This document shows positions 17,766-43,064 of a DNA stretch of 64,000 nt, in pieces. The notes under the pieces were generated by a model. The model ran no database searches. It had not been told where the DNA came from and saw only the letters and a list, made by a program, of their open reading frames with translations. The position numbers were made by a program, and so were the translations under genes. Origin of the DNA: Botryllus schlosseri (lineage: Eukaryota); NCBI GenBank assembly GCA_051294905.1, contig CM119371.1, forward strand, positions 34,164,001 through 34,228,000, given 5' to 3'. How positions within the stretch are numbered: the stretch's first letter is position 1; each line of letters begins with the position of its first letter.

Positions 17766-18444
17766 ATATGATTACAAATCGCAAGTTGCCTAACGTGGTT
17801 ATTCATCACTTGGCCATTTAAATTTATATGCTCCTAGATCCGGTTATATTGTAAATATAAGACAATAATGTGGAATGTATTTTGGGAATTTTTACCACGA
17901 ATCTGAAGTTCTTGTGGAAATATGTCACTTGTTCATATCGCAGGAAACATTGGCTTTCTCGACAAAAATACGTTATATCGGTGATCGGTTAAAATCTAGA
18001 TATCGGCGTTTACATAATCATTGTTGATATTCCGAGGAATCTGTACTCTGGTGATGCAACAGGATCTATATGTGGTTCTAAAACTTTTCAAGAAAATTCA
18101 CGATGCGATTCCATGTCATTTTTAATGGCTCACGGTCGATTTGGTCCGTTACCAAACAACACAAAACACAAATGGATTTTATGGTGTCAATGTAGCGACC
18201 GGGTGTAGCGACCAGCTCGGGTATGTTTGATTGCGTTTTTGACAACGCAACCCTAATACCGTGAATCACAATCAAACTCTTCAAATTCACATTCAGCTTC
18301 CAAAAACGCTGTCCTTGGCCTTCATATGGCCTCCAGACCCTTATTACCTCTTCGGGTAATTTCATCACTACCCCGCAACGTGACAATGTTCATAGAATGT
18401 TACCATTCTACCGCCGTATGCAGGGGTAAGATTACGTGACGATA

Positions 18445-19445
18445 TACAGCAAATTGTCGCGTAGAATTCCACGCCTCGCGCTCGGCGATACAATGCTAAC
18501 ATTCGGTGAATTGTTATGTAGATTTAAACGTCCCGTGCTCGGCGATGCAGTGCAACTATTCAAATGTTAGAATTATATCGACAAGCGCGAGACGTTCATA
18601 TACGAGATAATATTCATCAAATGTTAGCATTGTATTGCCGAACACGGGGCAATTAAATTCACGAGACAATATTCATCGAGTGTTAGAGCATTGTATCATA
18701 GTGTCCTATATGGTGTGGACACAAGAAAATCTCACGGCTCAGTGAAATTGGTCGACGTCACACTTTCTATTTGGCTAAAGGCAATTTGACAGTAGTTTTT
18801 GACCGGCTTGCCGAGCATTAAATTTGATAAAACGGAGATCAATCGAAAGCTACCGCGGTACTGATTGCGTAAATATAAATTTTGTTCTGCTCGTGGCCCT
18901 GGAACCCTCAAAATCATCCTCGAATGCTGCATTGTCACGAAGTTTCGTATTGTGACGCAGCCATGCCGTCTGAGCATCTGAGTAGCAAGTGCTCACGAGA
19001 GTGAGAGCGTGAATGCTCAATCGGTTGCGTAACAATGACCAATACGCTTGCAGTTTGCGCTGCTTCTCACCTGTTCCCTGACAGCATGGTAGCGTCACAA
19101 TACCAAACTCCGTTCCAATGCAACATTGAAGGTTGATTTTGGGGGGGTCGCAGAGCCACGAGCAGAATAAAATTTATACTTTCGCAATCAGTACTGCGGT
19201 AGCTTCCGATTCATACCCGTTTTATCAAATTTAATGCTCGGCAAGCCGGTCAAAAATTATCGTCAAATTGCCTTCAGCGGAATGGGAAGTGTGACGTAGA
19301 CCAATTTCACTGAGCCATGAGATTTGCTTGTGTTCTCACCTTATAGGATACTATGATTGTATCGCCGAGCACGAGGCGTTTAAATCTACGCGACAATATT
19401 AATCGACTGTTAGCGTTGTATTGCCGGGCCGAGCCGAGCCGGTTT
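18445..19445. mobile_element. Long-TIR MITE (~18711-19340, PIF/Harbinger-like GG..CC ends) inside a palindromic array of ~55-bp repeats
   Basis: 18711-18910 is the diverged reverse complement of 19145-19340. The flanking gcattgtatcgccgagcacgaggcg..acgcgacaatatt units occur in both orientations. Confidence 0.7.
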
Positions 19446-19670
19446 TGCGGATATTCGTAGGTCCCGCTTTTAACACTATCAATTACGATCCTAATCACCC
19501 AAATTCCTTCGTGCACTGGTGCTGCAATAGTATTATGCCAATGCCCAAGTATGAATAGAATGTTATTTATGTGCGAAATCCAAGCGGTCTTTATATGCAA
19601 AAAGCGCGTGTCAATTATTATCCGCATTACATTGAGAATGACAAAAATAGTTTTGGATTTGGATACAAAC

Positions 19671-19798
19671 CGTAATATATTTGTAGCCGACGACAGAGAG
19701 AATCCCAGCAGCCGTTCCTATCATCAAAGCACCCATCGGAGATATGTAGAGATTGGCTATCGCGCCAGCCGCTACGTCACTAGCAAGAGTTATTGAAC
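19671..19798 (-). pseudogene. Orphan Rh glycoprotein / ammonium transporter exon (equivalent to Rh exon 6)
   Basis: TLASDVAAGAIANLYISPMGALMIGTAAGILSVVGYKYIT matches the Rh-family (N)ATLAGGVAVG...PYGA.IIG...GIIS..G..YLT segment. Bounded by AG (19800-19799) and GT (19670-19669). Length 128 bp is not a multiple of 3. Confidence 0.8.
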
Positions 19799-20064
19799 CT
19801 ATTGCGGATAAAACATATATCATTTCAAAGTAGTGTATTGTGTTGGCAATACATCATTGTCATTTGTAATTAACATGTTAGTGTGATATAAACAAGAATA
19901 GCTAAATCAATCAATCTATATCTTTAAAATCTCATTGGGAATAATCTGACGAATGTTGGTAAATGCTGCTATTAGATCTATTTTAAGAACAGGCTCGCGG
20001 GCTACTCATCTGGTCCTCGCGGGCTACCTGGGGCCCGCGGGCACCGCGTTGGTGAATCCTGGAC

Positions 20065-20290
20065 TAAACCACCGCGACCAGGTAATTCTGGTTCAATTCC
20101 GACCAATAGAAGCCATGTAATCCAATATCGAAATGCTGGGTATTTTTTAAATAAGAGGATTGACGGTAGAACATTTCGTGTTCATGCATCGTGTTCCGGA
20201 TATGCCTGATGGGAGAGCGATGCTTTATTCACGCATTTACGGCCTGTCACAGAGTTCGGATAAAGACATTGCTAATCAACGACCAGATTA
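20065..20290 (+). mobile_element. Possible tRNA-derived SINE remnant
   Basis: B-box-like ggttcaattcc at ~20090. The mirror copy is at ~39540-39745. No A box was confirmed. Confidence 0.3.
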
Positions 20291-21844
20291 TGATGCTTAT
20301 ACGCTGGATATTATATAAGTATTTATACAAATAACATTCAGGACGATCGTCTTCGTTCCTTACGATACCGCACCTAACGTTGGCACAAACGAGTTGTTGT
20401 AATTGGTAATGTTGTTGTTGTTGGCGGTGGTCTTGTTGCTCTGGTTTGACGGTAATGATACTTCGACATCGATGGTTATTTTACACCGGGTTCATATTCT
20501 ACTTCATATTCCCGTATATACGGCTGCCTTAGAGCGCGGTCCACTTTCGCTCCAGGTTATTGAAAGGCACGACTTGCCGCTCGCCGCTCGGCCATTTAAG
20601 AATGGAATCGCATCTATCAATCCAATAGTGGAGTCGCATAGACCAATCAACAAATATTGGGAAAGAGTACAAGGAAATACGAATCTAGGTACATGAAAGA
20701 CTTCCTGCCGTGGAAACAAGGGTTGGAAACTTGAATGAAGTGCGGTAAGAACGACGCATTGCAGACTAAATTACAATCTGAGCAAGACCGGATGCAGCGA
20801 CTCACGACTATGCCATGCTGTAGAGCACTATCTGATAAAGTGCCGAAAATACCACCTTCAAAGGGAGTGATTACGACGCCCGCCATGAAGAGGTGAATAA
20901 TATAACTAGCGATATGGGTAGACTACTTACAGATCCGCAAATATTGCAATATGTGGTTTAACATGTTAGATCGAAGGGAAGAACATCATAAATCCTATCT
21001 ATGATTTTTATATTTACACGTGCAGTATGTTATTTTCGTGATATATTATGAATGTTCTGTAACTTCACACAAACAGCCTTTCGATGTGATAAGCGCCACT
21101 CATCCCAGTGATTCTATCTATAATAGTAATAAATTGGGTTTTGGGATCGGATGGTAATGTAAAGACAATATTGGTAGGAATTTTTTTGGTGTTAGAGGCA
21201 GAAGATCGCGTCACTGTGCCGCTCGCCAATGAAACTTTATTCTGTATCATCGATAAGATGATCATAAATTATTACACGCGGTGGCGATAAAGCATCGAAT
21301 TTCTCCATCAAATTTAACAACGGAAATGTAGCCAATGTGTAACATCGCAACAGCGTCGGCGTTCCACATCAACAACTATCCGCGAAGCAAAACCATAGAA
21401 ATGTTCAAAGTTAGTGTGGGAGTTCTCAACCCACATACTGTATGTGTAACATACTTTCCTGCATGTTTCAAATCTTGCTTTCGTTTCTTAAATATGTTCA
21501 TATTTTTCTCTGCACAGTTACTTGTTCATTTAGTTTGAGTGGCAATAATTATTCAAATTACGTCCAGATATGTTGTTATACATATTGTTTCATTATATAA
21601 TTCACAATATTTATTTACATATACCATAAACATATAGGCCTATACACTATCGTGATTATATCTTCCATCACATGACTTGATGACATATCTCATAGTTTTG
21701 AGATAAACTCCTGCCGGTTTATAGATGACAGTGACATATGGACTTAGAAGTACGGTGCAGCACCCTCGCAACATATCATTAGGCGATGAGACGGCCACTT
21801 ATACAAGCCAGATTATGTGCATCGTTTCCAAACACCACCTAGAT

Positions 21845-22029
21845 CTGTAGTTCCCAACATGGGCGATATCGCCCCCCTCTCATCAACAATTACAACCTTC
21901 CATGCCATTAAACTATCCGTTGGCATTGCCAGCATTCTGGTTTCATTTTGTGATATGATGTTAGCGGGCGCGCGAAATTTTTCACTCTCATAAATGGGGG
22001 CGTGTCTAAAAATGTTTGCGAACCACTGG
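21845..22029. mobile_element. Short decayed hAT-type MITE
   Basis: Imperfect TIR ctgtagttcccaac / gtttgcgaaccactg, present in both palindrome arms (mirror ~37727-37913). Confidence 0.55.
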
Positions 22030-23836
22030 TTTAGAGACAATGCCGTTAAGGGTATAATGATTAAGGATCGTTATGTCATGATTTTTTAACAGTGTTATCG
22101 CAATACAGAATGACATCGAATAGTAAAACATAACTATTCACGTTCTGCGAATGCATAGTGCGTACTATGCATGTGTACAGGCTTTTCCAATAATATACAT
22201 GTCATTTTAAGCGTGCGTATGATACATGGAAAATTACGGCGGGCGCTACGAGTCTAAGTTTATTAAAATTACATAACATCACAACAGTACAAGGTTGCGA
22301 TCCACTAAAGAAGTAGTTTATTCAAGCAAGATGGTGATTGCGCAAAGCTTTGCATTAGCTTGAGAAATCGTCAAAAAAGGCTGACTCTATTAAATTATTA
22401 TAGGTTCCGTATCGTTTGCTTTTCACAGTCGTTCATGACATGGCGTAGCGGTTGTGAATTACGTATTGTCATAGCTTATTCCATCTGCTTTCAAATATTT
22501 TATCTCAGCATGAACATGACATTATTTTACGAATGCCATAACGAGATGATTCCTCAGGTACGGAACACAATTCAAACAAAAATAATTAGGCTTTGATCTC
22601 GCCGTGGCTTGAGTCAGTACCCGAGCGCATGCAAGTTGAAGTTTATTATTATGGTAAGTACATTATTCCCATCGGCATTCCGGAAGTAAAATGTACTGTG
22701 AATGCGGATTGTTTTCGCTAAATGTATGTGGCCGCCAAATAGTTACACGTAATAGAGCTGAGTCTTGTAAAAATCCTGCTCGGAAATGCAGCTTCTTCAA
22801 AGTAGAGAATAATCTAGCATTGCTATACATTTCATCGAAGTAAATCAATAAATGCATACGCCTGACAATGAAAGGTTGCAAATTGCATACTTGAATGCAG
22901 TTTTTATTTACAAAAGTGCACAGTTTCACAGATATTTTTGAAACAATATCTCACCTTTAGTCATATTCGACTTCGAACTGCTCCCCGCATGATATCAACA
23001 AAAAATAAGTAACCACCACTGCACATCCAGCAGATCAATCGAACATACACATCTCGGCCTAAAGCTAAGGACTTCAACACGCTACCCGCCCCAAGAATCC
23101 GCAATACAGTTTAGCAGCCCATGTTCAATCCTTCCAGAATGCTGATATATAATTATTATCCTACACTACAAGATCCTCATGCAACACTATTACAATCTGT
23201 TAAATTGTTTAATAGTTATGTCATCATTCCCTTGAAAAGCATGGCCGTATACGTGAATTTAGTGGTTGCAGATTTTCAAGAGTCATAAGGTATAGGCTGT
23301 AGTAGGCATATGTATTATGATGACGGTCAGGTAGATATTTTGTGGTTTTTTAAGCTACAAGGGAGCTACATTAATCGTGTCTCCAAGATTTACATTTCTA
23401 TTACTGCGACACAAACATGGAGTCGGCTATTTCCAGGAGTTAGCTTACTTTATCGGAAGCAATATTTTATAGTCTTGCCTTATAAACGTAAATTACTTTA
23501 TTATTAAATACTTTTAGGCGAAATTTATCGTCAGCGTCACTGCTTATGGTTTTCTTGACGATGAGTGCGAAATATGTCGGCTCACTTTCAATCTTACACT
23601 TTCATCTCTCAAATATAGCATTCGTAACAGCACTATTCTGATACTGCGGCCCGGCATCTATCAACTTTAAAATAGGTCGCGACTGCCTTTGAGTCGGAGA
23701 GCCCTAGCACATTCCGGCTACATGAAAATAATACACATTGCACACTGAATGAAATAAAAATGAGTAGCACGAGAAATCGACATCAAATGAAATAAAAGAG
23801 GTCCGTATGGATATGTGCACTCCACATTTCAAAAAG

Positions 23837-24445
23837 CTAATGATTGTCCTGTAGGTTTCTTTCAGATATAAACGACCATATGCGCTCTCCTACGTCGAAA
23901 AGTGGCGTCAAATATTCCACCGGCACGCAAAATAGACTGAATAGTTCGGTTTGATGGGGGGCGACTCCGCCTCGGGCTTCCGTGACGCCAACGTCGGCGC
24001 TAGCGTACATTTGCGTCCAGCACTTGGCCTTCTCTGAATATAGCACCGGGTTCTCTCGGTACATAATTGCGCTCTCGGCGTCCATGGGGTTATCGAGATC
24101 AGGAGAAGCAAGCAAGGAACATATCGATAAAAGCACTTTCGACGTCATGAGTGCCGGCGACCATTGCGCTTGCAAAATATCCACGCATATTGCACCCCGC
24201 CTGTCGACATTTGGATGGAAAATCTTCGTGTCGAATCGCATCTTCGGAGGTTTGAAAGGATATTCTGTCGAGTATTCGATGAGAATTCGAAATAACCCTC
24301 CCTCAAATGGAGTTCCAGCAGGCCCTTCTATCGTTGCCCACCAATGATAGAAATCGGATTCAATAACAGGTCCTGCTTTAATAAGCTTATTCCCGGGCTC
24401 TTGTAAGAACTTTTTATACTTGTATTGTAACCTTTTCGTAGCCAT
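23837..24445 (-). CDS. Intronless ubiquitin-conjugating enzyme E2 (UBE2D/Ubc4-like), 202 aa with ~54-aa C-terminal extension
   Basis: MATKRLQ start, GTPFEGG, YPFKPPK, HPN motif plus catalytic Cys (HPNVDRRGAICVDIL), QWSPAL and SKVLLSICSLL, in an uninterrupted frame. Confidence 0.9.
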   Translation of the reverse strand: MATKRLQYKYKKFLQEPGNKLIKAGPVIESDFYHWWATIEGPAGTPFEGGLFRILIEYSTEYPFKPPKMRFDTKIFHPNVDRRGAICVDILQAQWSPALMTSKVLLSICSLLASPDLDNPMDAESAIMYRENPVLYSEKAKCWTQMYASADVGVTEARGGVAPHQTELFSLFCVPVEYLTPLFDVGERIWSFISERNLQDNH

Positions 24446-24758
24446 CACTCGTTTAACCTTTGTTGTACAGTCGTAGACCGTTTTAGTGATCTGATTGCGA
24501 TTCGTTATCGGCATTTACGCTTTATGTATACGGCACACGAAAAGTCGTATCAACTCGGGGACTCCCCAGGTAACGCGGGCCATCACATACCGCTCAACAA
24601 GCATGTTGGACTTTGCTTGAATGCAAACAGTGGGATTTCTCCAGAAAAAACGAATTTTCCCGATAGTAGATATCTGCAGTCAATTTTTACAATGCCGAGA
24701 CGCAGACACCCAAGAAACGATTATTCCAACTTGAAAAAAAAAATGAATTTGCCACAAT

Positions 24759-25287
24759 CAGTGTTGGAATGACTCGAGTCAACTTTTCATTTGATTTGAC
24801 TTGACTCGCGTCCATTTGCAAAAATGACTTGACTTGATTTGACTCGACGTTTCAGAAATGCGGATTGACTCGTTTTTCGATGTAAAATTTACGAGTCTAT
24901 TTCAAGTCATCAAGTTATCGGTATCGACTTTATTATTATTATATTCTTTATTCACAGTAAATCTGGTGAATACACACATTAATAACAATCTGACTGTATT
25001 ACTGAAATTTTAAAAATTTACTCTGATCTCGCCATTATCCTTTGGGGGCAGGTCGCTCCCCGGATAATGTGTGTATTCACCAGTTTTACTGTGAATAAAG
25101 AATATAATAATAATAGAGTCGATGCCGATAACTTGATGACTTGAAATAGACTCCTAAATTTTACATCGAAAAACGAGTCAATCCGCATTTCTGAAACGTC
25201 GAGTCAAATCAAGTCAAGTCATTTTTGCAAAGGGGAGCGAGTCAAGTCAAATCAAATGAAAAGTTGACTCGAGTCATTCCAACACTG
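24759..25287. mobile_element. Two mirror-image ends of a GACTCGAGTC/GACTT-rich MITE at the palindrome centre
   Basis: cagtgttggaatgactcgagtc at 24759 and its reverse complement ending at 25287. Flanks are inverted (gccacaat / attgtggc) rather than a direct TSD. Related sequence occurs at ~40100-40200 and 61611-61810. Confidence 0.75.
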
Positions 25288-25601
25288 ATTGTGGCAAATT
25301 CATTTTTTTTTCAAGTTGGAATAATCGTTTCTTGGGTGTCTATGCGTCTCGGCATTGTAAAAATTGACTGCAGATATCTACTATCGGGATTATTCGTTTT
25401 TTCTGGAGAAATCCCACTGTTTGCATTCAAGCAAAGTCCAACATGCTTATTGAGCGGTGTATGATGGCCCGCGTTACCTGGGGAGTCCCCGAGTTGATAC
25501 GACTTTTCCTAGGCCGTATACATAAAGCGTAGTTGCCGTAAACGAATAGCAATCAGATCACTAAAACGGTCTACCACTGTACAACAAAGGTTAACCGAGA
25601 G

Positions 25602-26036
25602 ATGGCTACGAAAAGGTTACAATACGAGTATAAAAAGTTTTTACAAGAGCCCTGGAATAAGCCTATTAAAGCAGGGCCTGTTATTGAATCCGATTTCTAT
25701 CATTGGTTGGCAACGATAGAAGGGCCTCCTGGAACTCCATTTGAGGGAGGGGTATTTCGAATTCTCATCGAATACTCGACAGAATATCCTTTCAAACCTC
25801 CGAAGATGCGATTCGACACAAAGATTTTCCATCCAAATGTCGACAGGCGGGGTACAATATGCGTGGATATTTTGCAAGCGCAATGGTCGCCGGCACTCAC
25901 GACGTCGAAAGTGCTTTTATCGATATGTTCCTTGCTTGCTTCTCCTGATCTCGATAACCCCATGGACGCCGAGAGTGCAATAATGTACCGAGAGAACCCG
26001 GTGCTATATTCAGAGAAGGCCAAGTGCTGGACGTAA
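25602..26036 (+). CDS. Second intronless UBE2D-like E2, truncated at 144 aa by CAA>TAA (possibly a pseudogene)
   Basis: 14 substitutions in 435 nt against the 23837-24445 copy (8 missense, 5 silent, 1 nonsense, counted by eye). Catalytic HPN/Cys is intact. The downstream extension still aligns to the TAG at ~26210. Confidence 0.8.
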   Translation: MATKRLQYEYKKFLQEPWNKPIKAGPVIESDFYHWLATIEGPPGTPFEGGVFRILIEYSTEYPFKPPKMRFDTKIFHPNVDRRGTICVDILQAQWSPALTTSKVLLSICSLLASPDLDNPMDAESAIMYRENPVLYSEKAKCWT

Positions 26037-29000
26037 ATGTACGCTAGCGCCGACGTTGGCGTCACGGAAGACCGAGGTGGGGTCGCCCCCCATCAAACCG
26101 AACTATTCAGTCTATTTTGCGTGCCGGTGGAATATTTGACGCCATTTTTCGACGTAGGAGAGCGCATATGGTCGTTTATATCTGGAAGAAACCTACAGGA
26201 CAATCATTAGCTTTTCGAATTGTGGAGTGCACATATCCATACGGACCTCTTTTATTTCATTTGATATCGATTTCTCGTGCTACTCTTTTTTATATCATTC
26301 AGTGTGCAATGTGTATTATTTTCATGTAGCCGGAATGTGCTAGGGCTCTCCGACTCAAAAGCAGTCGCGACCTATTTTATAGTTGGTAGATGCCGGGCCG
26401 CAGTATCAGAATAGTGCTGTTACGAAGATTGAAAGTGAGCCGACATATTTCGCAAGCATCGTCAATAAAACTATAAGCAGTTGCGCTGAAGATAAATTTC
26501 GCCTAAAAGTATTTAATAATAAAGTAATTTACGTTGATAAGGCAAGATTATAAAATATTGGTGCACTTCGATAAAGTAAGCTAACTCCTGGAAATAGCCG
26601 ACTCCATGTTTGTGTCGCAGTAATAGAAATGTAAATCTTGGAGACACGATTAATGTAGCTCTCTTGTTGCTTAAAAAACCACAAAATACCTACCTGACCG
26701 TCAACATAATACATAGGCCTACTACAGCCTGCCTTGTGACTCTTGAAAATCTGCAACCACTAAATTCACGTATACGGCAATGCTTTTCAAAGCAATGATG
26801 ACATAACTATTAAACAGTTTAACAGATTGTAATAATGTTGCCGGTGGATCAGGTAGTGTAGGATAATAATTATATATCAGCGTTCTGGAAGGATTGAACA
26901 TGGGCTGCTAAACTGTATTGCGGAGTCTTGGGGCGGGAAGCGTGTTGAAGTCCTTAGCTTTGGGCCGAGTTGCGTATGTTTGATTGATCTGCTGGATATT
27001 GTGCGGTGGTGGTTATTTATTCTTTGTTGACATCTTGCGGGGAGCAGTTTGAAGTCGAATAAGGCAAAAGGTGAGATATTGTTTCGAAAATATCTGTGAA
27101 ACTGTGCACTTTTGTAAATAAAGACTGCATTCATTATAATACAATTCTTGGACTCGAAGGCTTTTTGTGTGCCCCTTATCGACAGTTGCCGCCACAATAG
27201 CTAACATAAGTCGGCGGAGGTGTCGATATCCTCGACAATAAGAGATCGCTCGCTATGGCTGTTGTAAAGGTGATGGTGTCGATTTCATCATTACAAGCAT
27301 AAACGAATCCAGACGATCTATTCCAATGGATGCCGGAAGCGCTCAGATGTATCGAGTGTATTGCACTTGATCAGACGATGGATTGACGGATACGTATGCC
27401 CGATGAATCCAGCTATGATTTTGACATGAGTTAGATAACACTGCGCAACAATTTGAACGAAATATTTGTAGACTTTGATTTTGCACTTGATTTAGGCTAA
27501 TTTTTGCGCGCTGATTCCCAATATGCCGCTGGTTTTCTTATATCACTTCAAGGTTTTGCGCTACGGCATATGCCCTAAATATGCAAATTTTCACGAATTT
27601 AGCCATGTTACTTTTCCACACCATGTAGAAATCATCACTTTTATGATATAATAAGTGATATAGCCAATGGCCCATTTGTATTATTAAGACAAAAGGTACT
27701 GGTATCGATCTAACCCGATGCTTTCACCAATTTTAGGTTAGAGGATGCAACCATCCGAGAATATTTTAGACACACATTTGATGCAAACCGCCGGATTTGG
27801 CAAGAAAAAGAAACGTTAAATTTACCATCAGGTATAGGTCCAATGCTCCATTCAGCTTATCCAGTGTTACTTGAAACTACTCTACGCTCAATAATTTGGA
27901 TCAAGATGAAGATCTTACTGATAGCAGGCCTAAAGATGAAGATTTTGAAATCGACAGAGGTGGTCAAAGTAGTCAAGAAAGATACTCAAGTATAAGTATA
28001 AGTAGCGACGAAAAAAACTACTCAAGTACGAATAGAAGTACTTCTTCAATAAACCACCTAAAACTACTTGAAGTAGAAGTAGAATTGACTGACTTTAAAT
28101 CTACTCAAGTAAGTAAGTAGTTTTGAAAGCAATCTTAATTGGTTCGCATGGACTGTCAAAAGCTGCGAATTGAGCTATGATGCAGGTGCAGAGAGCTTGA
28201 TTCGTATTGATGCATATCAGGAAGTATCAATTTTCGACAGAATAAGCATTTTTTCGCATCATGGGATGCAAAATTATAGTATTGATATGATAATGCGACA
28301 CTAACCCTTTGTTGACTAGAAGACCCCGTTTTTAGAGAATATCATGGTATGGCGCCCTACCCCATTTATAAGGCCCCAAGTTCATGCGAAAAACAATACG
28401 TAGAAGTTGTATCGGATACGGTTTCATCACTTTGCCCGATTAGTATACGTTAATAACAAATATTGTGGATCGTAAAAGTTATGTTTTGTGTAGCTTTATT
28501 TTCGGAAAATAGAGGCATTACTACACTTGCATTTATGCTTCAACATGTATGTTCTGCAGACAAAAGAACTGAAAGTAATAAGAACGTAAAGTATGATACT
28601 CGCAATTGAAAGTGAAATATAAATACCACTTCTAAAACGCCGAAAATATGTTTCATGTCTTTTGTCCATAAAGCTTAAAAGGTGATCTGCTAAACCAGGT
28701 GTAACGTGAAAAAATGCTGGATTTTCCAGATTAGCAAGACACGTAACGGGTTCCTAGATTATACGATATGATAGGTAATTGCTAGATTGAGAAACGGTAG
28801 TATCAAGCGTTATGGTGGGATATATTTACTGTGATGAAATATTTGATATGGGCGACAATGCGGTGTGAGAGGAACCAAGTAATCCGGTACCTAAATTATA
28901 TTCATTGATACTTTCGTGAAAACATATTAGTCACTCCATCATTACTATGCGCGAAGCGCATCAAAATTTCTGGGCTTTACTTGACTTTTATGAATATTAA

Positions 29001-30835
29001 ATGTTGGTACTCCGTGAAAACAGCCCCGAAATTCCTCAGGCTATCTTTGGTATTGGGGGATTAAACTTCTTCTACTTGACAAATTGAAAATAGCGAAAAG
29101 TAAGTAAGTAGATCACAAAATATTACGAAGTCGAAGTAGAAGTAGAGAGAATCAGATCTACTTGAGTAAGTACCAGAAGTAGAGGAACACTACTTGAGTA
29201 CTTCCAAAAAGTAGAAGTACTTCGTTAGTGACCGCCCGGGGCCTACGATATTCACGGCCTTATCTCGCACAAAACACTTGAAAGAGCTAACAGGCCGACG
29301 CTGCAAAACAGATTGACTCAGCGATTGACTCAGGAATTGTTTTGATTTCGCTTCTCATAACAGACTTCTCGCATTTTGAAGCGCGCAGTTTTCATTATTC
29401 GGCAAGTTCTCGAGTTGAAGGGATGTTATGAGCTTTTAAGACCATCTTATAGTATTAGCTAGGTTACCGTTATGCGATTGTGCTACTATGGAGCAGTCAC
29501 CTTGGCCAGTTTTTGAACTAGTGGCCGAGTTAGAATTGTTATAGAATGATACTGTGACTAACTAATACTACAGGGACGACTGTTTCCTTATTGTAGTGGA
29601 GATATGTTTAGCTGCCGTTTTGAACGGCTTATAGCATGAGGTAAGATGCCGTTATGCAGTTGGTAAATAACTCTTTATGTTGCGATATTCTGCACGCACA
29701 CCACAATATTTTAAAAATTTCCGATGGTAGTTCATGTGGCCTTTCTCACGGTGACTGACTGTATACTTGGTGACTCAGGTTTGGCTTATGGCTAAATAAT
29801 CGATAATGGTCAACAAATGCTGTGTGTATGGTTGTAAGTCTGGATATTTGACAACTAAGAAAAACGTTTCATCGTTTCAATTTCCATTTGATGATATGAA
29901 GTTACAAATGAAATGGATAGCTTTTGTGAATAGACGTGATTGGACACCAACTAAGAGTTCTGTAATTTGTGCGTTGCACTTTGAATCAAAGTACATCAAA
30001 GACTGTGGCTTACGAAAAAAGCTACTTCTGGATAGATAGAAAGCCAGTCCCTTCCATTCGATCCGAGCTGGAGCTGCTAACGGCCGTCACTGATCCCGAC
30101 TGTGTCTCCTTGCAGAAAACCACCAAACGAAAGGATATTTCAGAAATATGAGTTGAAAGATGTCAAGCTGGCATATAAAATAAGCAGCTTATCAGATTTG
30201 ACTGAGTCACATGCTCCACAAGGCTATACCATGTACAAAAGAGATCATGAATATGTGATTTTCGACCATTTGTAATCCAATGATTTCCCAAAGGTGTCAG
30301 AGAGCATAAGGATTGATGATAAGTTGTATGCCAAATTGCAGTGTGATGGAAATCTTGTTCCTTTGCCACCTTGGTTCACACAAGGCACCAATGCTACCCT
30401 GACTAGATTTGGTGCTTTACTCAACTTTCCGCAATATCTCAAAATCATCTCAAATCTCAATATCATCGCCCGGTGGATTCATTGCATGGAGCGATCTTTA
30501 CAAAATCAGAGATTGTGACGATAAGCTGGATTCGAATTTGTGTAAAGAGCCAGAATCAACGTTTGTCTCGTTGCATCCAAGCAATAACAAACATAATGTC
30601 AATTTTGCTCTTGCTCCATTCCATGAGTCGACTATTGCAGCTTGCAAAAGTTACTTGTCGCACAGGGTAGATATTGCTTCATTTTTGAGTCTTATTAATG
30701 CTTGGTGGACGATTGTAATTTCGTGTGACAGAAATTCAGGAAACCCCATTGGCCAAAGCAGTGGTCCCACAAGATAGCAAAATCAATTTCCTACAAGATT
30801 TCGCTAATTGGCTGATAAAATGGAATGGATGTAAC

Positions 30836-33800
30836 CAGTGTTGCCAACTCCGGATGGAAGAAAATCGCTAAAACTGGTGTCAAAAATCGCTAGATGTCGC
30901 TAAATATTCAGAAAAAAGCGCTAAAAAATAGCGCTAAATTTGCATTAATTGCTAAAGGTGTTAAATTGAACCATAAAATTAATACATTCTTCTCAGCTAT
31001 ATTTTACTCGTCTGGGGCCAAAGTCACTTATCATATTTCTAGTTCATAATACGTAATAGTCATCTCTAAGCGGGAAAAAACGTGCAGTGCATTTCGATAA
31101 AGCAGATCGCTTTGCGCAATGCTCGGTATACGTGACCACTGACCAGGTTTGCAGGCATAACCGCTCACTATATAAGCGTGCCTTGCTCGATGCGTCCGTG
31201 AATACGTGAGGCGATGTACCGTGGAAATGCGCTTGACTTCTCTAAACTGTGTTGGAGTACTTGAACACGACATGCGACTTGACTCGACACAACACGACTT
31301 GAACCGGGTTTGCCAGCCACTATACGTAGAGACCTTAAGAAAATAATCCTAGGACCAACCCGGGGTATAAAATTTAATGAATCTGGTTTAAACGAAAGCT
31401 AGTGTCACACTGATTCCGAAAATGCGAATTAAATTCTTGTCAAGACAATGGAACGACCTCAAAACAGCCCCCAAAGTCTAAAAATCGGCATTGATCAGAA
31501 CAATCGCTGGACGAAATTGGTCATTGTTATGTTCATCGTGTTGCGGCGGTGCCATTGTTGGAGCAAAATGCCGGTTTTCAGACTTTGAGGACTGCTTCGG
31601 GGTGCATGCATGGTTCCATTGTCCTGACGAGATTTTATTTTGTATTTTCGAAATCACTGAGACACTAGCTCTAGATCAGTGGTTCTTAACCTTTTTTCCT
31701 CCAGCGCCCCCTTTCAAAAATTGTCGTGCTCCAGCACCCCCCATCTCATATTGTAAGGACTGTAATAAAGACAATGGGTAAGAGGGCGGGCCGTAACAGC
31801 ACTTCGTCAGCCCCCTAAAAAACGATTGTCTTGCGCACCCGCAGCGTGATAAACCAAACTTCAGAGGGCTTCGCCCCCAAGAACCCCGTCACGTGATTTC
31901 GATGGTCATCAAAGTTTGTGTGGCCTGGTCGCCCTAGGCGCCCAAAATTCTTTATAATGCATGAATGAAGAATAGGTGGTAATTGCATATATCTGTCGCT
32001 ATAAACTTTCTATGCTCTCAGCCACGTAATCAAATTTACCATAGTAGCGCTGAGTGAGCTGTTGCATTGGAAAATGAAGGTCACGTAATTAATAATTGAG
32101 CATATTCGGCCGTGCCCGTTGGTACAATTAATTCGTTACCATGTTGTTATTTTGTCACCTCTTGTCCGCTATATAGTCAAAAGATATTGAAACGCATAAA
32201 CGTATTAAACTAAAGTAAGCCCATGCTTCAAAATTGGTATTTCTTCACTGGCAAATAATTTTCTTTGATGGGTGTTATTTGTCCTGTGGGGTGCAGATTG
32301 CGACGACATGATAATTCGGCACGAGCGATTCAAGATATGGACAATTAGACTTATATTCATCGAAGTTTACTGTCAACATAAGGGCAATCCTCTTCGGCTA
32401 AGATTTTCTGGCTGACGATCTTTTTGACACACTTCTCGGTGTCCCATATTGACCGGAACTTCATATTTCTTCGTGCATCGTGGCCTGGTAATGTCCGACG
32501 CCAAAATGCCTATTTCTATTTTCTATAATTATGCGTATTCTTCCGTGAAGGAGTCGTCAGAACATTTAGTGTAATTTATGTTCATTCACCAAATAATTTA
32601 GGGCACCCTTCGAGCTCACCGATTGGGGGTTTGTGTTGGAGCAGTACCGGTCCTGGTAAGAGGTCAAAGTCCAGTCGGCCTTTCCGGAACTTTCCTATTG
32701 GAAATATTTCGCGCTTTAATCGAGGACCATTCGACTATAATAAACTATGTAATAATTGTGTGTGGTATATTCAGGGTCAAATCAAGGTCTCATACCCTGT
32801 GGTTCGAACCATCCCGAATTCACATCTGCGATTGGCAATACGGGGAAATTAATGGTATTGGATTTTTACTTGTTGCTTTGTGTAACTACAAGTAAGTCAA
32901 CTGAGAATGGGAGTCATATATCTGCTCTCATTGAATTTTGTGCTGTACCCAGTTATTAATTTTAACATGAATGTATTCCAAACAAAGCAACTCATATTAT
33001 ATATTACAACGTTCATATGAGCCTGTGAAACACAACACTAGATAGTATCATCCTTTTATGATACGACAAAGAAATATTCTGACGCTTTAATTTTGTAGCT
33101 CTCAAATACAAGTATATTTAGTTATTCACTTCGTGTACAAAGCTTCAAAACTTATTTTATGTAGAAGGGGGCTCTCACTCTCAAAAGTGATATACAGTGC
33201 CTCCTTCTTCGCTGCGGGATATAATACTTAATTCGAAACATTTTGTTGAAAATAACCCAAGCAAGCGTGACGGCAGTGTTTTAACGGGAAATTGGCGATC
33301 TAAAAGTACGCGTGATTCGTTTTACATGAATTATAATAACCCACTACATTTATGAAAACATATGTAGCAAAAATCGACGCGTAGCGCGACCAAAAATTTC
33401 GAGATTTGACATGTTCTGTGGAATGTTAATTTGCTCTGAATACTCATTAAGGATATGTCATACTACCGCATCATCTAATGCAAAGCCATTTTTTTTCAGC
33501 GCCCCCCATATCGCCCCACTGAGCCCAGTGCCCCCCATATCGCCCCCTGAGCGTTACCGCCCCCTTAAAAATCGCCAGCGACCCTTGGGGGCGCTGGTGG
33601 CAAGGTTAAGAACCACTGCCCTAGATCAAGGCCAATTTCATTGAATTTCAGCGCTCAGGTCGCCAGATGTGGCACAGCCAATGCCAATTATGCTACTTTT
33701 AGATTACTCAGCAAGAAGAGATACTGTTTACCCATGCGTAACCGCCAGGAGTTGCGTATCTATCCATAGATAACCTTAGGTTAGTTATCTATATATCATC

Positions 33801-34015
33801 GTAGTCCGGACTCTGGTGGCCGGTATAGCCAATGCAGTCGTCGGCCAGAACTGATATTTATTAGTTATTTTCGGTAAAAAAGCGCTAAATAATCGCTAAA
33901 TACTTCTTCAAAAATCGCTAGATTTATCGCTAGGCGCTAGATCCATATTTCTTGTCGCTAAACCGGATGAAAAATCGCTAGATCTAGCGCGAAAATCGCT
34001 AAATTGGCAACACTG
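30836..34015. mobile_element. hAT-type MITE with ATCGCTA subterminal repeats
   Basis: TIR cagtgttgccaa / ttggcaacactg, with TSD gatgtaac / gatataac. Confidence 0.88.
31677..33618. mobile_element. hAT (Buster-type) MITE, innermost of the nest
   Basis: TIR cagtggttcttaacct / aggttaagaaccactg, with TSD ctctagat / ccctagat. A partial second copy lies at ~40550-41058. Confidence 0.88.
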
Positions 34016-35912
34016 GATATAACCCCCAGAATTATTGTTTGCCAAAGCAAACCTCCAATGCTCTGATCGAAACCCTGCTCTGGCAAGCGCTGCTTATTAA
34101 GGACTTGTTAGCAGAGGGGTATGAATATGTGATTCTGAGAAAATTCCAAAGTGACCCAATTGAAAGAAGGTTCTTACGGTATAAGCAAATAGTGGGGGGA
34201 GGTTTCTGGTTGGTTTGACAGAAGTTGCCAATTCTGAAAATATAATACTTCTCGTTTCATCCTTAAAATTGACATTAATTACTGGGAGCATGATATTGGT
34301 GTTTCAAGTTCAACACATTTTGATCATTTCAAACAAGTCATTGAAGGTGTGGCTACTGACATTACCGGATCAGTTCTGTCTCCTGATAGCGAGGAGGTGT
34401 CGTATTTTTTTGCAGGGTACATTGGTAAGAAGGTTCTCGTAAAATCGGCTAGCGAAATATGTTCTGAGTTAATTTTTGATGGGTTTGATTGCGTAAGTTT
34501 AGGATATTTCGATTTACTCGATCGTGGGGGACTGCTTGCTCCCTCAGAACAACTCGATAAGCTTGTTGTATCCGGTTTTTCAATACTAGAGGGCTGTGAT
34601 AAAATCATCTGCTCTCATCCTCAGGTTGCAGTGAGGGAAGCTGGCGAGCATGTTTTGCATCGTTTTGGGGGTCCTTGCACTTTGCATGTTGTGATCATCG
34701 AGATCGAGCTTTGAAATTAGCGAGCAAAATTATTGTGAATATATATTACAATAACAAGCATAAGCTGGTAAATTCTTCTGTGGGAAAAGATGCTGTGAAG
34801 GACTTTAAAAACGGCAGTTGAGGAAAACGTAGCTTGCATATTTCAGTGTTGAATTTTATTAACAGTACTTGTGATCGAAGCTTATATGACTAAGCCACAT
34901 GTTCGCTTTTAATTATTCTTCACGTGCTTTAATTGATTCTCCATGCAATAAAATAATTTGCATGAGCAAGTAGACGTGTTCTCAATAGTTAGCTTACTTG
35001 GTGGATAACTGCATCTACGACGCTGTCACTTGTCACTTTGTGTTCTTTTGTGCGAAAGTACGGCTTTCGCCTGTTATACGGCTCTGTTACACTTATCTGA
35101 GGAAAGGCGTCTGGTAGCGAGAAGCAAAATCGTACATAATCGCTGATGTCTGTTTTATGAGCATCAGCCTGTTAGCTCTTGCCGGTGTTCTGTGCCAGAT
35201 AAGGCCGTGAATATCGTAGGCCCCGGTCCACCTGTGGAAATCGCAGATGACTCAGAACTTGGAGTAGTCCATCAACACAAGGTAAATAATTTTACATAGG
35301 CTTCGGGGCTTGGAATTGGAATATTCGGAACTTTTAGCATCCTTGCGAATTGAGAAAAGATTACTTGTCAAGCGAGAGAAGATATCTCACTATCGATCAT
35401 GAAAAACGGCGTTTTCATCATAAGGGCTAGTTTCAGTATAGCTTTGTGTATTGCCGTGATACTGGCATTAACACGATACTGGTACCTTGGGTTGCTGGAG
35501 GAGTTAGGAATCCTGATTTACAACTCAAGTGAATGGAAATGTCTATTGGTATAACTCAAAAAGGATCCTATTGAAGTGCAGCATTATCCAAAATGACAAC
35601 TTCTTTGGTGAACTAACAATTGCACACTCAGTTAGTCTTGGTGAATAATACAGAAACGTTGAATTGTTGCAACATCACAATCCCGATTGGATCATATCTG
35701 TCAGCTTTAAAATATTGTGTATCTTACTGGCCATATACAATAAGGATGAAAATGTAACCCTGATACACATGCGCCAGTCCCATATGTTTATGTCGGACAG
35801 AAGACATTGACATTAAAAAAAGCTGAATATCGAATTAGGTTCCCGGAAAACCTTGGAGCAGTCAGCGATGGGCCCCAAGAAAGTGTCACACACTATCTGA
35901 AGATGTTTGGGG

Positions 35913-36084
35913 CAATGTTCCCTCTAATTTTGACGAGTCTGCGCACACTCACCAACTCATTGCGCAGACCATTGTACAACAGTGCGTAACGACTAAAAAG
36001 TCATCACTTCGGATTTTTGTGCGCAACTTGGACTTTCTGTGCGCAAAGACCGTGTCAGCACTACGCAGCTTAGAGGGAACATTG
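35913..36084. mobile_element. 172-bp MITE
   Basis: TIR caatgttccctctaa / ttagagggaacattg with exact TSD gtttgggg. Confidence 0.9.
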
Positions 36085-37155
36085 GTTTGGGGTAAGATAC
36101 CAGTGAGTATATCTGAGCTGACATATATGTTAGCTGACTATTGCTCCACTATCAAACGAGACAACCCACAGAATTATGAGTTATTAGCGTAAATTTAGAC
36201 CCTGGAACTCGCTCTTTATTTGTCCTGCAGAAGCAATATTATTTTAAATCAACCAAATATAGCAGTACAGAGGTTTATTTGAAATCTATTGACTCACTTT
36301 CGACTGCTAGTGGTTTTTCAAACGTTTTATGCAATAAACGCAAAATATTAAACGTAGTGCTTTTATGTGGATTATGAGACAATGTGGTTGGTGCCTAGCC
36401 CAAAAACTTGACGTGATAGAGAAAAACGCAAGTCTTTTTTTTAATTCAGCGCCCAAAAGTTAGTTAACACCAAATTGTCTGATTAAACTCAACGAAAATT
36501 GTGTTGACCAGTGCAATAAATACAATCGATGGCATGAAATTTGAGGCGGGCGAAATATTTAGAGCAATGCCATGGCGTTCCGAATATTCATTGTGCCGTA
36601 GTGAAAACGAATAACGTCGTAATGCGTGTCTAGTATATTATGAGTCGAAGACGACCAAGTGAAGACCCCGTTTTGCATTGTATTTGCATACATTCATCAA
36701 TAACACACGGGTTTGGGGTCATGTAGGACATGTGGGACAATGCGTTGTGCGTGAATATTCAGAATCATATGCTTTACAAGTATGCAATTTGTAACCTTTC
36801 ACTGCCAGGAGTTTGCATTTATTGATTTACTTCGATGGAATGTATAGCAATGCTAGATTATTCTCTACTTTGAAGAAGCTACATTTCCGAGCAGGAATTT
36901 TACAAGACTTAGCTCTGTTACGTACAACTATTTGGCAGCCACATAAATTTAGCGAAAACAATCCGCATTCACTGTACATTTTACTTCCGGAATTCTGATG
37001 GGAATAATGTAATTACCATAATATTAAACTGCAGCTTGAAACACTGAAATAAAATATTTGGAAGCAGATGGAATAAGCTATGACAATACGTAATTCGCAA
37101 CCGCTACGCCATGTCACGAAAGACTGTGAAAAATAAACGATACCGAACCCATAAT

Positions 37156-37349
37156 CAATGTTCCCTCTAAGCTACGCACGTGCGCAAATGCGAAGTGCTG
37201 ACATGGTCTCTGCGCACAGAAAATTTAAGTTGCGCACAAAAAATCTGAAGTGATGACCCTTTTTTTAGTCGTTATGCACTGTTGTCCAGGGGTCTGCGCA
37301 GTAAGTTGGTGAGTGAGCGCAGACCCGTCAAAAATTAGAGGGAACATTG
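37156..37349. mobile_element. Second copy of the caatgttccctctaa MITE (opposite orientation)
   Basis: Same TIR, TSD cccataat / tctataat. The empty site (cctataat) is visible in the left arm near 22400. Confidence 0.9.
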
Positions 37350-40265
37350 TCTATAATAATTTAATAGAGTCAGCCTTTTTTGACGATTTACCAAGCTAAT
37401 GCAAAGCTTTGCGCAATCGCCATCTTGCTTGAATAAACTACTTTTTCATTGGATCGTAACCTTGTAGTGTTTTGATGTTATGTAATTTTAATACACTTAG
37501 ACTCGTAGCGCCTACCGTAATTTGCCATGTATACTAGGCACCCTTAAAATGACTTGTACATTATGGGGAAAAGCGTGTACCCATGTATAGTACACACCCT
37601 GCATTCGCAGAACGTGAATAGTTATGTTTTAGTATTCGATGTCATTCTGTTTTGCGATGTCACTGTTGAAAAATCATGACATAACGATCCTTAATCATTA
37701 TACCCTTATCGGCATTGTCTCTAAGCCAGTAGTTTTCAAACATTTTCAGACACGCCTCCATTTTTATAGTGAAAAATTTTGCGGCCTTCTTAATATCATA
37801 TCACAAAATGCAACCAGAATGCTGGCAATCCCAACGCATATAATAGTTTAATGGCATGGAAGGTTGTGACTGTTGATGAGAGGGGGTCGATTTCGCCCAC
37901 GTCGGGAACTACTGACCTAGGTGGTGTTTGGAGACGATGCACAGAATCTGGCTTGTATAATTGGCCGTGTCATCACCCAATGATTTGTTGCGAGGGTGCT
38001 GCACAGTACTGCCAAGTCCATATGTCACTGTCATCTGTAAACCAGCAGGAGTTTATCTCAAAACTATGAGATATGTCATCAAGTCATGTGATGGAAGATA
38101 TAATCATGACGGTGTATAGGCCTATATGTGCATGTTATATGTAAACAAATATTGTGAAGTATATAATGAACCAATATGTATAACAACATATCTGAATGAA
38201 ATTTGCACAATTATTGTCACTCAAACTAAATGAACAAGTATCTGTGCAGAGAAAAATATGAATATATTTAGGAAACGAAAGCAAGATTTCAAGCATGCAG
38301 GAAAGTATGTTACACATACAGTATTTGGGCTGCGAACTCCCGCACAAACTTTGAACATTTCTATGGTTTCGCTTTGTGGATGGATGTTATTTTGAGACGC
38401 CGACGCTGCTGCGATTTTACCCATTGGCTACATTTCCGTTGTTCAATTTGTTGGAGAAGTACGACGCTTTATCGCCACCGCGTGTAATAATTAATTATTA
38501 TCTTATCGATGATACACAATAAAGTTTCAGGTGGCGAGCGACACAGTGACGCGATCTTCTGCCTCTAACACCAAAAAGAGTCTTACCAATATTGACTTTA
38601 CATTTCCATCCGATCCCAAAACACAATTTATTACTATTACAGATAGAATCAGTGGGATGAGTGGCGCTTATCACATCGACAGGCTGGTTGTGTGAAGTTA
38701 CAGAACATTCATAATATATCACGAAAATAACATACTGCACGTGTAAATATAAAAAGCATAGATAGGATTTATGATGTTCTTCCCTTCGATCTAACATGCT
38801 AAACCACATATTGCAATATTTGCGGATCTGAAAGTAGACTACGCATAGTTATATTCTTCACCTCTGCATGGCGTCGTAATCACTTCCTTCGAAGGTGGTA
38901 TTTTCTGCACTCAGATAGTGCTCTACGGTTTTTATCAGTACAGCATGCATAGTCGTGAGTTGCTGCATCCGGTCTTGCTCATATTGTAATTGAGTCTGCA
39001 ATGCATCGTTCTTACGGCGGCACTGCAATCAAATTTCCAACCCTTGTTTCACGGCAGTTAGTCTTTCATGTACCTGGAGTCGTATTTCCTTGTACTCTCT
39101 CCCAATATCTGTTGATTAGTATGCGACTCCACTATTGCATTGATAGATGCGATTCCACTCTTAAATGGCTGAGCAATGAGCGGCAAGTCGCGCCTTTCAA
39201 TAACCTGGAACGAAAGTGGACCGCGTATAAGGCAGCCGTATACGGGAATATGAGGTAGAATATGAACCCGGTGTAAAATAACCATCGATGTCGAAGTATC
39301 ATTACCGTCAAACCAGAGCAACAAGACCACCGCCAACAACAACAACATTACCAATTGCAACAACTCGTTTGTGCCAACGTTAGGTGCGGTATCGTGAGGA
39401 CGACGAAGACCGTCCTCAATGTTATTTGTTCATATTTGTTGTCGATGATTTAAGTGTGTAAGGGATATTATTTGCAAATTATATCACCATCGACTAATAT
39501 CCAGCGTATAAGCATCATAATCTGGTCGTAGATTAGCAATGTATTTATCCGAACTCTGTGACAGGCCGTAAATGCATGAATAAAGCATCGCTCTCCCATC
39601 AGGCATGTCCGGAACACGATGCATGAACACGAAATGTTATACCGTCAATCCTCTTATTTAAAGAATACCCAGCATTTCGAAAGTGGATTACATGGGTTCT
39701 TTGGCCGGAATTGAACCAGAATTACCTGGTCTCGATGGTATAGTCCAGGATTGACCAACGCGGTGCCCGCGGGCCCCAGGTAGCCCGCGAGGACCAGATG
39801 AGTAGCCCGCGAGCCTGTTCTAAAATAGATCTAATAGCAACATTTACCAACATTCGTCAGATTATTCCCAATGAGATTTTAAATATATAGCTTGATTTAT
39901 TTAACTATTCTTGTTTAAATCACACTAACCTGTTACTTACTAATGACAATACATAAACACTTAAAATGACGATATCAAATATCCTCAATTACAATTAGTA
40001 ATATACCAACACGTAATAAAATCACAAGATATCGAAGACGTATTATACCGCGCACTGCCTATACAGGCGACATGACGGATGGAATGCCATCGACGATCTT
40101 CTTGATTTGACTTGACTCGAGTCACTTTGCAGAAATGACTTGACTTGACTTAACGTTTCAGAAATTCGGATTGACTCGTTACGCGAAGTAAAATTTACGG
40201 GTAATCTGAAAAGAGGACACTTTTTAAAAAATTTGATACTAAGAAGGCAAAAACTTATGACGCTG

Positions 40266-41257: not shown

Positions 41258-42020
41258 TAGGGATGGTATGAACGTGACGTTCACGTTCGCGTTCTGTTTG
41301 TAAAGCTCTGAAATTTAGAGGTCATATACACATACGAACCTTGGTAGGTTAAGTGAACCTTTTTCATATATTACAATTTTCATATCATTACAACATCTTT
41401 GGTTGAAATTTATTGCATTTCCACTGCGGGCTAGCATAAAAATCAACACTAAACGAGCATGCATCTTCACAATTTCGAAATTTTTACCTGCTTTGTTACA
41501 AAAGTTTGCTCGAAATATCCAGCTTTCCATATTTGTTAATATTTAGTGACTCTCTGCTGTGAGCTTGACCCGAAATCACAAAACATCAAGAACGAAATAC
41601 GCTACGTGAAGGTAGTCAGCGAGTGATGTTTATTCAACCAATCATTGAAACTGATATCGTTGTCAGATGCACAAAATCTAACAAGCGCCCGGGGTCCATG
41701 TCGATTTCATTTGTTTATTGTATCATCAAAATCAAATCCGTACGATTGGGGTGTTCGCTACTGCTGTATAGCTTGTTAATAGGGTAAAACCCGTTTTCCA
41801 CTCAGCTTAATATCAATGTAGCAACACTCAGACGTCGAATATATTGTCCAGTCTGGCCCCGACCGTTAAGGCGTAAGTCTATATGCCCTTGCATGTCCTC
41901 GTCGAAATTGTTGGCAAAGCGACGGAAGATACTGATTTTATGGGATTATTACGTTATTTGATTCATGCATTTAATACATTTGGCGACGTTTAAAAAGTCA
42001 GTATGTACTTCAGAATTGTA
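41258..42020. mobile_element. Partial TAGGGATGG-family MITE (inverse of 47358-48364)
   Basis: Starts tagggatggtatgaac. Internal sequence is reverse-complement similar to 47570-48364 and stops at the Harbinger end. Confidence 0.7.
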
Positions 42021-43064
42021 GCGTTAAGGCCTCTGCACACTGAACTCGCGACGCAACATCGCGAGTTGCGCGTCGCGAGTTGCGAGTCGTAAGTCGCGAC
42101 GCAAAGCACACTGCTGCCAAATGAGTACTCGGCAGTGCCCACAGGCGGCAACTACCTCAAGCGCCAGTTCTGCCAGAAATCTCTCTGAGCAAAAATACAC
42201 ACTGCTATGGGCGATCAACATCAATGATCATACGAATGAAGTCGCACAATAGTATGCGCTTGTCCGACAAAAAAAACAATGTATTGCGTCATCAGCCATT
42301 GTAGATTTAGGCTTGGCATAATTCAAAACTATGACTACACACGACACAAACTTAATATCCTCTGCATACTGCTTCAGTCAGACTTGGCCATTTAGATAAT
42401 TCTATTTGTCAATATTCTAATTAAAGCGAAATGATTGCAATTATGATCCAATTTATGACATCTTACTTTGCTATAATCTAATTTCTGGTTTCCTGTAAAC
42501 GCTGCAGAGCTGTACAGTGCAAAGCGAGCCAGGGCTGCTGTACAGACGTTGTAATTATGATCTAAGTTATGACATCTTACTTTGCTATAATTCGAATTCA
42601 ATTGTGAAAAGCTGAGAATTTTCTAATGGTCCAACTCTGGTTAAGTGACCAGCAAGTCTTCGTATCCCGGTGCACAACTTCTTACATAATGTAGAGTCCG
42701 ACATTCAACAGCAATTTCATTTTATTTTTCAATCAGTCTTCAAAGATAATCTCAGATATTTTTTTTTCATTTTGATAATGGATTGCTCTTCAGGCATCAA
42801 CCGCAACTGGTTTGTGATGAAGTCGCCGAAAGTTTGAAACTGGTCCGTGGGCTGGCTCACTTCTTCAGTCGAAGCTCTCAGGAACTTTATCATCTCCTCC
42901 TTAAAAATAGATTTATGAACATAATTACAACAGCAAAGCTAATAGGAAGCTGTGGTAGGCTTATATGACATACGAGCATAACCAACCGCCAATTACATAT
43001 TCATTGTTGCTGTTGCATCCAGCTCCATTCCATCGAGCAACGGACGAGCAAGCACTGTTACGAA

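Follow-up and report, generated by a model that had tools for sequence, protein, structure and literature searches.

Genes duplicated in inverted orientation have been described in several settings. Palindromes of the mammalian X and Y chromosomes hold gene copies in their inverted arms, between which copying may occur (10.1101/800185, PMC3723533), and the divergent gene pairs of Caenorhabditis, as far as the available parts of that report describe them, include some that are symmetric only near the centre and some that are broken by an insertion (PMC1803023). Fold-back inverted duplications in humans, according to the accessible portions of their description, have spacers of 766-70,466 bp and microhomology of 2-8 bp, and are new, large and pathogenic events (PMC3907307). 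For a published Botryllus schlosseri assembly, the accessible text gives a heterozygosity of 3.63% and judges large gene-bearing palindromes to be real (PMC12448946). The locus analysed here lies in a 64,000-nucleotide stretch of this species (assembly GCA_051294905.1, contig CM119371.1, positions 34,164,001 to 34,228,000 of the forward strand; hereafter the window, to which all coordinates refer) and consists of two intronless genes for E2 (ubiquitin-conjugating) enzymes placed head to head in the arms of a palindrome. With moderate confidence, it can be regarded as an old fold-back inverted duplication of an ordinary kind, partially homogenised at a later time, within an E2 cluster undergoing birth and death and with both gene copies decaying.

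Self-BLAST and global alignment place the inverted homology at 19856-24981 against 25065-39950, with differences in 335 of the 4,954 aligned arm columns (93.2% identity overall). The left arm (19856-24981; 5,126 bp) is likely the inverted copy and is followed by a spacer of 83 bp (24982-25064), while the right arm is composed of two parts: an inner one of 2.07 kb beside the spacer (25065-27133), likely the template, and an outer one of 3.17 kb (36779-39950; ~92% identical to 19856-22891) situated ~12 kb farther out. Since 9,645 bp (27134-36778) divide the right arm, a continuous hairpin spans ~2.1 kb. A preliminary description of this DNA had proposed arms of ~5.1 kb, which is accurate for the left arm and not for the divided right one; the inverted homology, the exact spacer, the absence of introns and the head-to-head start codons (ATGs at 24445 on the minus strand and 25602 on the plus strand, 1,157 bp apart) were borne out by alignment and Pfam. 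Left-arm homology may fade out ~50 bp farther left, an extension scored equally well by 29 of 2,000 random pairs, and homology over 350 bp past the arm ends failed to reach significance, 39 of 300 shuffles attaining the same level. The arms contained no tandem array, 17000-41000 matched no Rfam family and no tRNA was detected in the window. Strong instability owing to the short spacer had also been suggested. In yeast double-stranded DNA, as reported in the accessible sections of one study, lengthening the spacer from 12 bp to 100 bp cuts inverted-repeat recombination 300-fold, and a spacer near 100 bp together with some divergence much reduces instability (PMC10164571). Given these figures, high fragility would not be expected of a palindrome with an 83-bp spacer and 2-8% mismatch, and the suggestion is not supported.

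The centre of the palindrome is occupied by a transposon that is cut by the junction. In the 529-bp central unit (24759-25287), one end of a miniature inverted-repeat transposable element (MITE) is present twice, facing outward: the unit starts and finishes with the same terminus in opposite orientations, and the 8 bp flanking it on one side recur in inverted form on the other, rather than as a direct target-site duplication (TSD). Judging from its type of terminus, the element is putatively hAT-like. Its other copies were traced in reads of one DNA run (X1), mapped along with three RNA runs (X7, X11 and X5) onto 17000-28200; the four DNA-type runs of one sample contain 58-69% of the sampled words and, being possibly the source of the window, are not independent of it. 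Summed contig depth in X1 exceeds 200,000 at 25024-25037 and is thousands-fold over the spacer and the right arm's start, where 31 contigs cover 25066 and at least one reaches 35 bases beyond. Other copies of the MITE continue from the spacer, which is the interior of the element and is native and non-duplicated, into the right arm, and their reads cease to follow the window at 24981/24982, where loose ends are supported by 22, 63 and 65 reads, indicating that the MITE was cut there. As spacer and right arm together constitute native MITE sequence, the left half appears to have been replaced by a mirror copy, and the left arm is likely a fold-back copy. Near the palindrome, a 13-mer taken from the half of the MITE that is missing was not found; the window as a whole has 1 match to it against 2.07 expected. 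A break in this MITE, which lies ~310 bp upstream from an E2 gene without introns, would probably have been repaired by fold-back or sister fusion, with copying of the right side into the left arm; an asymmetric sister fusion would give the same layout as a fold-back. A fragment of the same MITE family is located at 40102-40202 (self-BLAST). The central element also holds an 8-bp stem (25033-25040/25062-25069) which is perfect here, nearly all other MITE copies having T at 25037 and 25066; two private changes at these positions, one per side of the stem, mend two adjacent mismatches and could represent hairpin-templated repair or a rare subfamily.

A join located inside a very high-copy repeat invites the explanation that the assembly fused two haplotypes or paralogous loci in inverted orientation at the MITE. 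The eight X1 contig pieces listed (of 13,067, mapped at 92% likeness) do not cross the central junction, so that the join rests on the assembly. Both arm versions are, nevertheless, present in X1. Five of these eight pieces overlap the left arm, four of them lying wholly inside it with 20-40 arm-diagnostic sites each and 0 differences from the left arm, and the fifth crossing the left arm end with 1 difference; one piece crosses the 27133/27134 junction. In the left outer arm, all 11 listed low-depth X1 variants are the right-arm letter. Left-arm pieces and right-arm variant letters in the same run imply that both arm versions exist as DNA. Furthermore, a chimeric fold-back read would give identical arms instead of 4-8% divergence and a dated insertion, and at the spacer the symmetry of the arms is exact to the base. 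A misassembly of this kind is, in our estimate, highly improbable, and the earlier proposal of an old structure rather than a read fold-back artefact agrees with the presence of both arm versions in X1, with arms that are 92-96% identical and with the dated insertion. X1 pieces that match the window have a depth of 40-51, against 82-103 in 13 of the 15 joints listed (the best supported, with 34 more beyond them, and mostly repeat copies from other loci). The palindrome block may therefore be present on one haplotype only in the X1 animal, contig depth being a poor measure of copy number.

The two arms resemble each other to different degrees along their length, the inner arm being 96-97% identical and the outer arm ~92% (~88% in the lowest full 200-column bins), as had been anticipated from the more diverged appearance of outer stretches. 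A single change point near 23365 divides a mismatch of 8.1% outside from 3.8% inside (none of 200 permutations as strong) and persists after merging of adjacent mismatches (none of 300; support interval 23061-23628 on the left arm), delimiting a better-matched core at 23365-26659. Mismatches number 239 in the 2,894 columns of the outer arm, and 22892-23364 (35/471) equals this rate. Within the core, the 3' flank has 19/445, the coding sequence 19/609, the stretch just 5' of the ATG (24446-24600) 14/155 and the remainder up to the spacer (24601-24981), which is mostly transposon DNA, 9/380 (p=7e-6); the MITE part alone has 7/222 (p=0.004 against the outer arm). Overall, non-coding core DNA has 42/980 mismatches versus 239/2,894 outside (p=1.7e-5). 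As low mismatch extends over non-coding DNA, protein-level selection cannot account for all of the core, and its inability to explain the transposon part favours later re-copying. The inner 1.6 kb has probably been re-copied arm to arm once more, judging from this pattern, either by gene conversion or by a second fold-back that remade the centre. The preliminary description had left the core as either homogenised by conversion or held by selection; the non-coding counts fit some re-copying, while selection on the pair, for which the test is weak, is not supported.

Both gene copies match Pfam UQ_con and retain the HPN motif and the catalytic Cys87. The left gene (23837-24445, minus strand), intronless, encodes 202 aa with a C-terminal tail of ~55 aa. 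The right gene (25602-26036, plus strand) encodes 144 aa and meets a stop at codon 145, by which the protein is predicted to be truncated within its last helix; the former tail frame is open as far as 26210. Since the relative P0001 (205 aa) shares the C-terminal tail, the long form of 202 aa seen on the left represents the ancestral state. The left protein could gain 23 aa from an in-frame ATG at 24514, which the right arm lacks. The copies differ at 19 of 203 codons, 7 synonymously and 12 non-synonymously, the latter including the right-copy stop (Q145). Damage is discernible in the left copy as well: K9 stands where 10/10 aligned relatives have E, M100 where 9/9 aligned relatives with a residue at this site have T, and the branch leading to it is longer (0.039) than that of the right copy (0.018). 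Both copies are likely to be decaying at present, with a probable loss of function. The pair had been introduced as two UBE2D-like genes and as a possible target of selection. They are not two intact and equivalent UBE2Ds, as one encodes 202 aa and the other is shortened to 144 aa by a nonsense codon, and both belong to a divergent subfamily; selection on the pair is not supported, 12 non-synonymous to 7 synonymous changes being compatible with neutrality (p=0.10-0.17; a weak test).

An alternative with a smaller, though appreciable, probability is that of one fold-back without re-copying, the genes and their regulatory flanks having experienced purifying selection during some of their history. 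It draws on the non-synonymous sites, of which 12 in ~460-470 differ, far below the outer rate (p ~2e-7 to 6e-7), whereas the synonymous sites show no significant reduction relative to that rate; on the patch just 5' of the ATG, which is at the outer rate; and on the position of the identity step, which lies inward of the 9.6-kb junction by ~470 bp (placing it at the junction lowers the log-likelihood by 4.7). However, such selection would require constraint on the mostly transposon-derived 24601-24981, the ratio of 12:7 is compatible with neutrality, and the genes tolerated a stop as well as replacements of invariant residues. Several points weigh against the preferred history of fold-back followed by re-copying. 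The central junction is uncrossed among the listed X1 pieces, and inverted microhomology at the centre amounts to 0-1 base against the loose-end consensus of other copies. Arm identity does not fall steadily outward; 24446-24600 is equalled in 63 of 2,000 permutations, and in 511 of 2,000 after cluster merging. Conversion is suggested by the identity pattern alone. Lastly, the left frame runs open for 202 codons and preserves HPN and Cys, the ratio of non-synonymous to synonymous divergence (dN/dS; 0.49-0.56) is not distinguishable from 1, and synonymous divergence (4.7-5.2%) is not significantly lower than the outer 8.2% (p=0.07-0.14), which together leave room for selection on the gene.

The fold-back history also has to accommodate the 9,645-bp block (27134-36778) found in the right arm only, which begins with low-copy DNA carrying an E2 remnant and continues with nested transposon-like elements. 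The block has no TSD, its ends share a 2-bp CA overlap, and a unique X1 contig (27093-27500) has a depth of 45.5. It is more likely to be native cluster DNA that is missing from the left arm and has grown by nested transposons than a single insertion; the left arm would then have lost it. Among seven arm-specific segments checked (with approximate bounds, one past the arm end), terminal inverted repeats together with a decayed TSD of 8 bp were seen in one only, a 194-bp MITE at 37156-37349. This element was inserted in the right outer arm after the duplication, both TSD copies being one letter off the empty left-arm site; a relative of it at 35913-36084 has a perfect TSD. The argument that arm-specific insertions with decayed TSDs demonstrate age consequently holds for one of the seven segments and does not extend to the 9.6-kb block. 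Within the block, a 6-kb element (29236-35226) has inverted ends of ~90 bp and contains nested MITEs at 30835-34016 and 31677-33618; its decayed coding sequence is, by eye, presumably THAP/P-element-like.

Two broken E2 genes lie within 7 kb of the pair. A third E2 of the same subfamily (17411-17750, plus strand), outside the palindrome and sister to P0006, has an internal deletion after the catalytic Cys; the possibility of an intron-split gene was rejected, as its translation shows a deletion. The heavily decayed remnant in the right-arm block (27222-27400, plus strand, end approximate) corresponds to the C-terminal half (tblastn E 1.5e-5; profile E 4e-4; three-frame translation). No additional convincing remnant came up in a search with a DNA profile built from the three E2 copies. 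Counting copies and remnants together, four E2s within 10 kb are consistent with a large family subject to birth and death. X1 contigs at depth 56-97 (25856-26206) carry E2 letters of neither arm, which implies at least one further close E2 copy outside the window. Additionally, 26206 is followed by the mirror of 26402 in one X1 contig, from which ~196 bp including the tail stop are missing, and two letters of the extra X1 copy are common to a few X7 reads.

In a midpoint-rooted tree of 31 rows (22 of 120 hits, hand-chosen), the left, right and third E2 together with P0001-P0006 form one long-branch clade (support 100/99), apart from canonical Ubc4/UBE2D and from six viral E2s. The palindrome E2s share with the class I E2s of the UBE2D/Ubc4 type the UBC fold, the HPN motif and the catalytic Cys, and their best PDB matches are of the Ubc4/UBE2D types. 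They are, however, only ~51-55% identical to such E2s, fall in a separate clade and, instead of the core-only form, possess the ~55-aa tail common with P0001. The acidic D117 is likewise replaced, by Asn119 in both copies and by His in P0001 (alignments), while most other aligned subfamily members retain Asp. Asn119 is coded at 25956-25958 and at the mirror site and is equivalent to UBE2D1 D117, a residue with a lysine-orienting role; UBE2L3, according to the portion of the literature available, carries a His at this position and is reactive towards thiols only (PMC5095918). For the tail (23840-24004, minus strand), the 50% representatives gave 4 hits, among which P0001 is the sole true relative; an SdrD-B repetitive protein, a LysM protein and a homocitrate-synthase-domain protein were rejected as weak matches. 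The 90% collection gave 1 candidate and none scored, and no Pfam family matched the tail. In metagenome contigs, 77 pattern hits for the left E2 led to 1 locus at 43% identity, which is not an ortholog. Among viral contigs, the best 80 of 368 E2 relatives were at most 52% identical, and none of the six placed in the tree joined the palindrome clade. No published description of the locus or the E2 subfamily was found in a literature search of main texts, supplements (including those of PMC12448946, possibly bearing on palindrome positions) being outside its scope. As a by-product of the analysis, this divergent and expanded subfamily, with its conserved tail and altered D117 position, holds the greater potential.

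The viral comparison bears on a further possibility, namely that the palindrome is a decayed mobile element with Maverick ends and one E2 per arm. AGTAGT occurs 27 bp beyond the left end, at 19829, and we take AGTAGT/ACTACT with a 6-bp TSD to be Maverick-type ends. The right end lacks the counterpart ACTACT, whose nearest occurrences are at 37908 and 40626; AGTAGT itself is present at 24 sites across the window, and weak inverted homology extends beyond the motif at 19829. Moreover, X1 depth is ~20-200 on non-repeat arm bins against 10^4-10^5 for repeats (at 92% likeness, by which older copies are missed), and the palindrome E2s do not group with the six viral E2s tested. Such an origin seems very unlikely.

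Transcription was assessed from 3-13% of each of the three RNA runs, which are of unstated tissue and come from animals that may lack this haplotype. Most mapped reads fit only in part (X7, 565/568; X11, 278/278; X5, 1,084/1,192). In X7, depth over the three E2 frames was 2-6, and at the four E2-coding sites listed the reads had letters of neither arm (26/26, 11/11, 5/5 and 2/2); X11 and X5 had no depth over the two palindrome E2 frames in the parts read. The unique arm flanks (bins 22610-23731 and 26350-27097) had zero RNA depth in all three partly read runs, and RNA reads on the spacer derive from other MITE copies. This amounts to missing support for expression rather than proof of silence, and counts as weak evidence. 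A functional gene pair maintained by conversion, or a hairpin-RNA locus regulating the expanded E2 family, is an improbable interpretation on these grounds. The core does fold into a long stem (651 nt, -324.6 kcal/mol, z=-47), as its symmetry by itself would produce; X7 contains transcripts of related E2 paralogs; and Caenorhabditis has head-to-head pairs whose arms are maintained, as the accessible part of that report states (PMC1803023). Yet the X7 reads at the listed coding sites match neither arm, the unique flanks are without RNA depth, weak as this evidence is, and a hairpin would need a separate promoter, since the divergent genes are transcribed away from the centre. The idea of read-through into hairpin RNA against the E2 family accordingly gains no support from these runs.

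The wider window is rich in repeats. The E2 cluster and the palindrome lie between the two copies of a direct segmental duplication (3738-11224/49477-61265), which are for the most part 97-99% identical, with stretches at 80-90%, and carry different insertions; recombination between them could delete the interval and explain the apparent hemizygosity. Duplicated frames of 267/268 aa (3959-4762 and 49702-50508, minus strand) are presumably hAT transposase remnants, a label assigned by eye and unsupported by Pfam, which returned no family for the one tested. Other palindromic or inverted elements, with arms 69-92% identical, are located at 12005-13651, 18695-19357 (high-copy in X1), 43065-43376, 31397-31670 and 41258-42026 with 47554-48364. 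A DDE_Tnp_4 (Harbinger-type) transposase fragment lies at 45025-45507 (minus strand; Pfam).

Compared with the systems introduced at the outset, the locus is a small, clear example of a transposon break duplicating a gene head to head, of little importance as it stands. Its two identity levels would provide a test case for arm-to-arm conversion off the sex chromosomes, if more haplotypes were compared. The broader proposition that MITE breaks seed gene-bearing fold-back palindromes whose arms are re-copied from the centre outward, in the manner of Y palindromes, on a hemizygous autosomal segment and with E2s devoid of Asp117, is speculative and has a low probability. Mammalian X/Y palindromes resemble the locus in carrying gene copies in inverted arms with possible arm-to-arm copying, but their arms, in the parts of the reports available, exceed 10 kb and 99% identity (10.1101/800185, PMC3723533), as against 5 kb and 92-96% here. 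Intact, germline-expressed gene copies are likewise not observed, with a stop in the right copy and no expression seen in the three partly read runs of unstated tissue; maintenance resembling that of the Y chromosome, which had been put forward, is at odds with this identity and with damage in both gene copies. The Caenorhabditis pair F44E5.4-F44E5.5 is similar in its divergent arrangement, in its short spacer (126 bp versus 83 bp) and in arms that run through the genes, though the accessible description reports orthologous palindromes in three species, evidence of maintenance, whereas in the present locus a stop interrupts one copy and a cut transposon occupies the centre (PMC1803023). Human fold-back inverted duplications, as far as the available text describes them, share with the locus a single-copy native spacer between the original and its inverted copy, and some of their junctions also lie in interspersed repeats (PMC3907307); the palindrome described here departs from them in its 83-bp spacer, its microhomology of 0-1 bp, its age and its size of ~5 kb.

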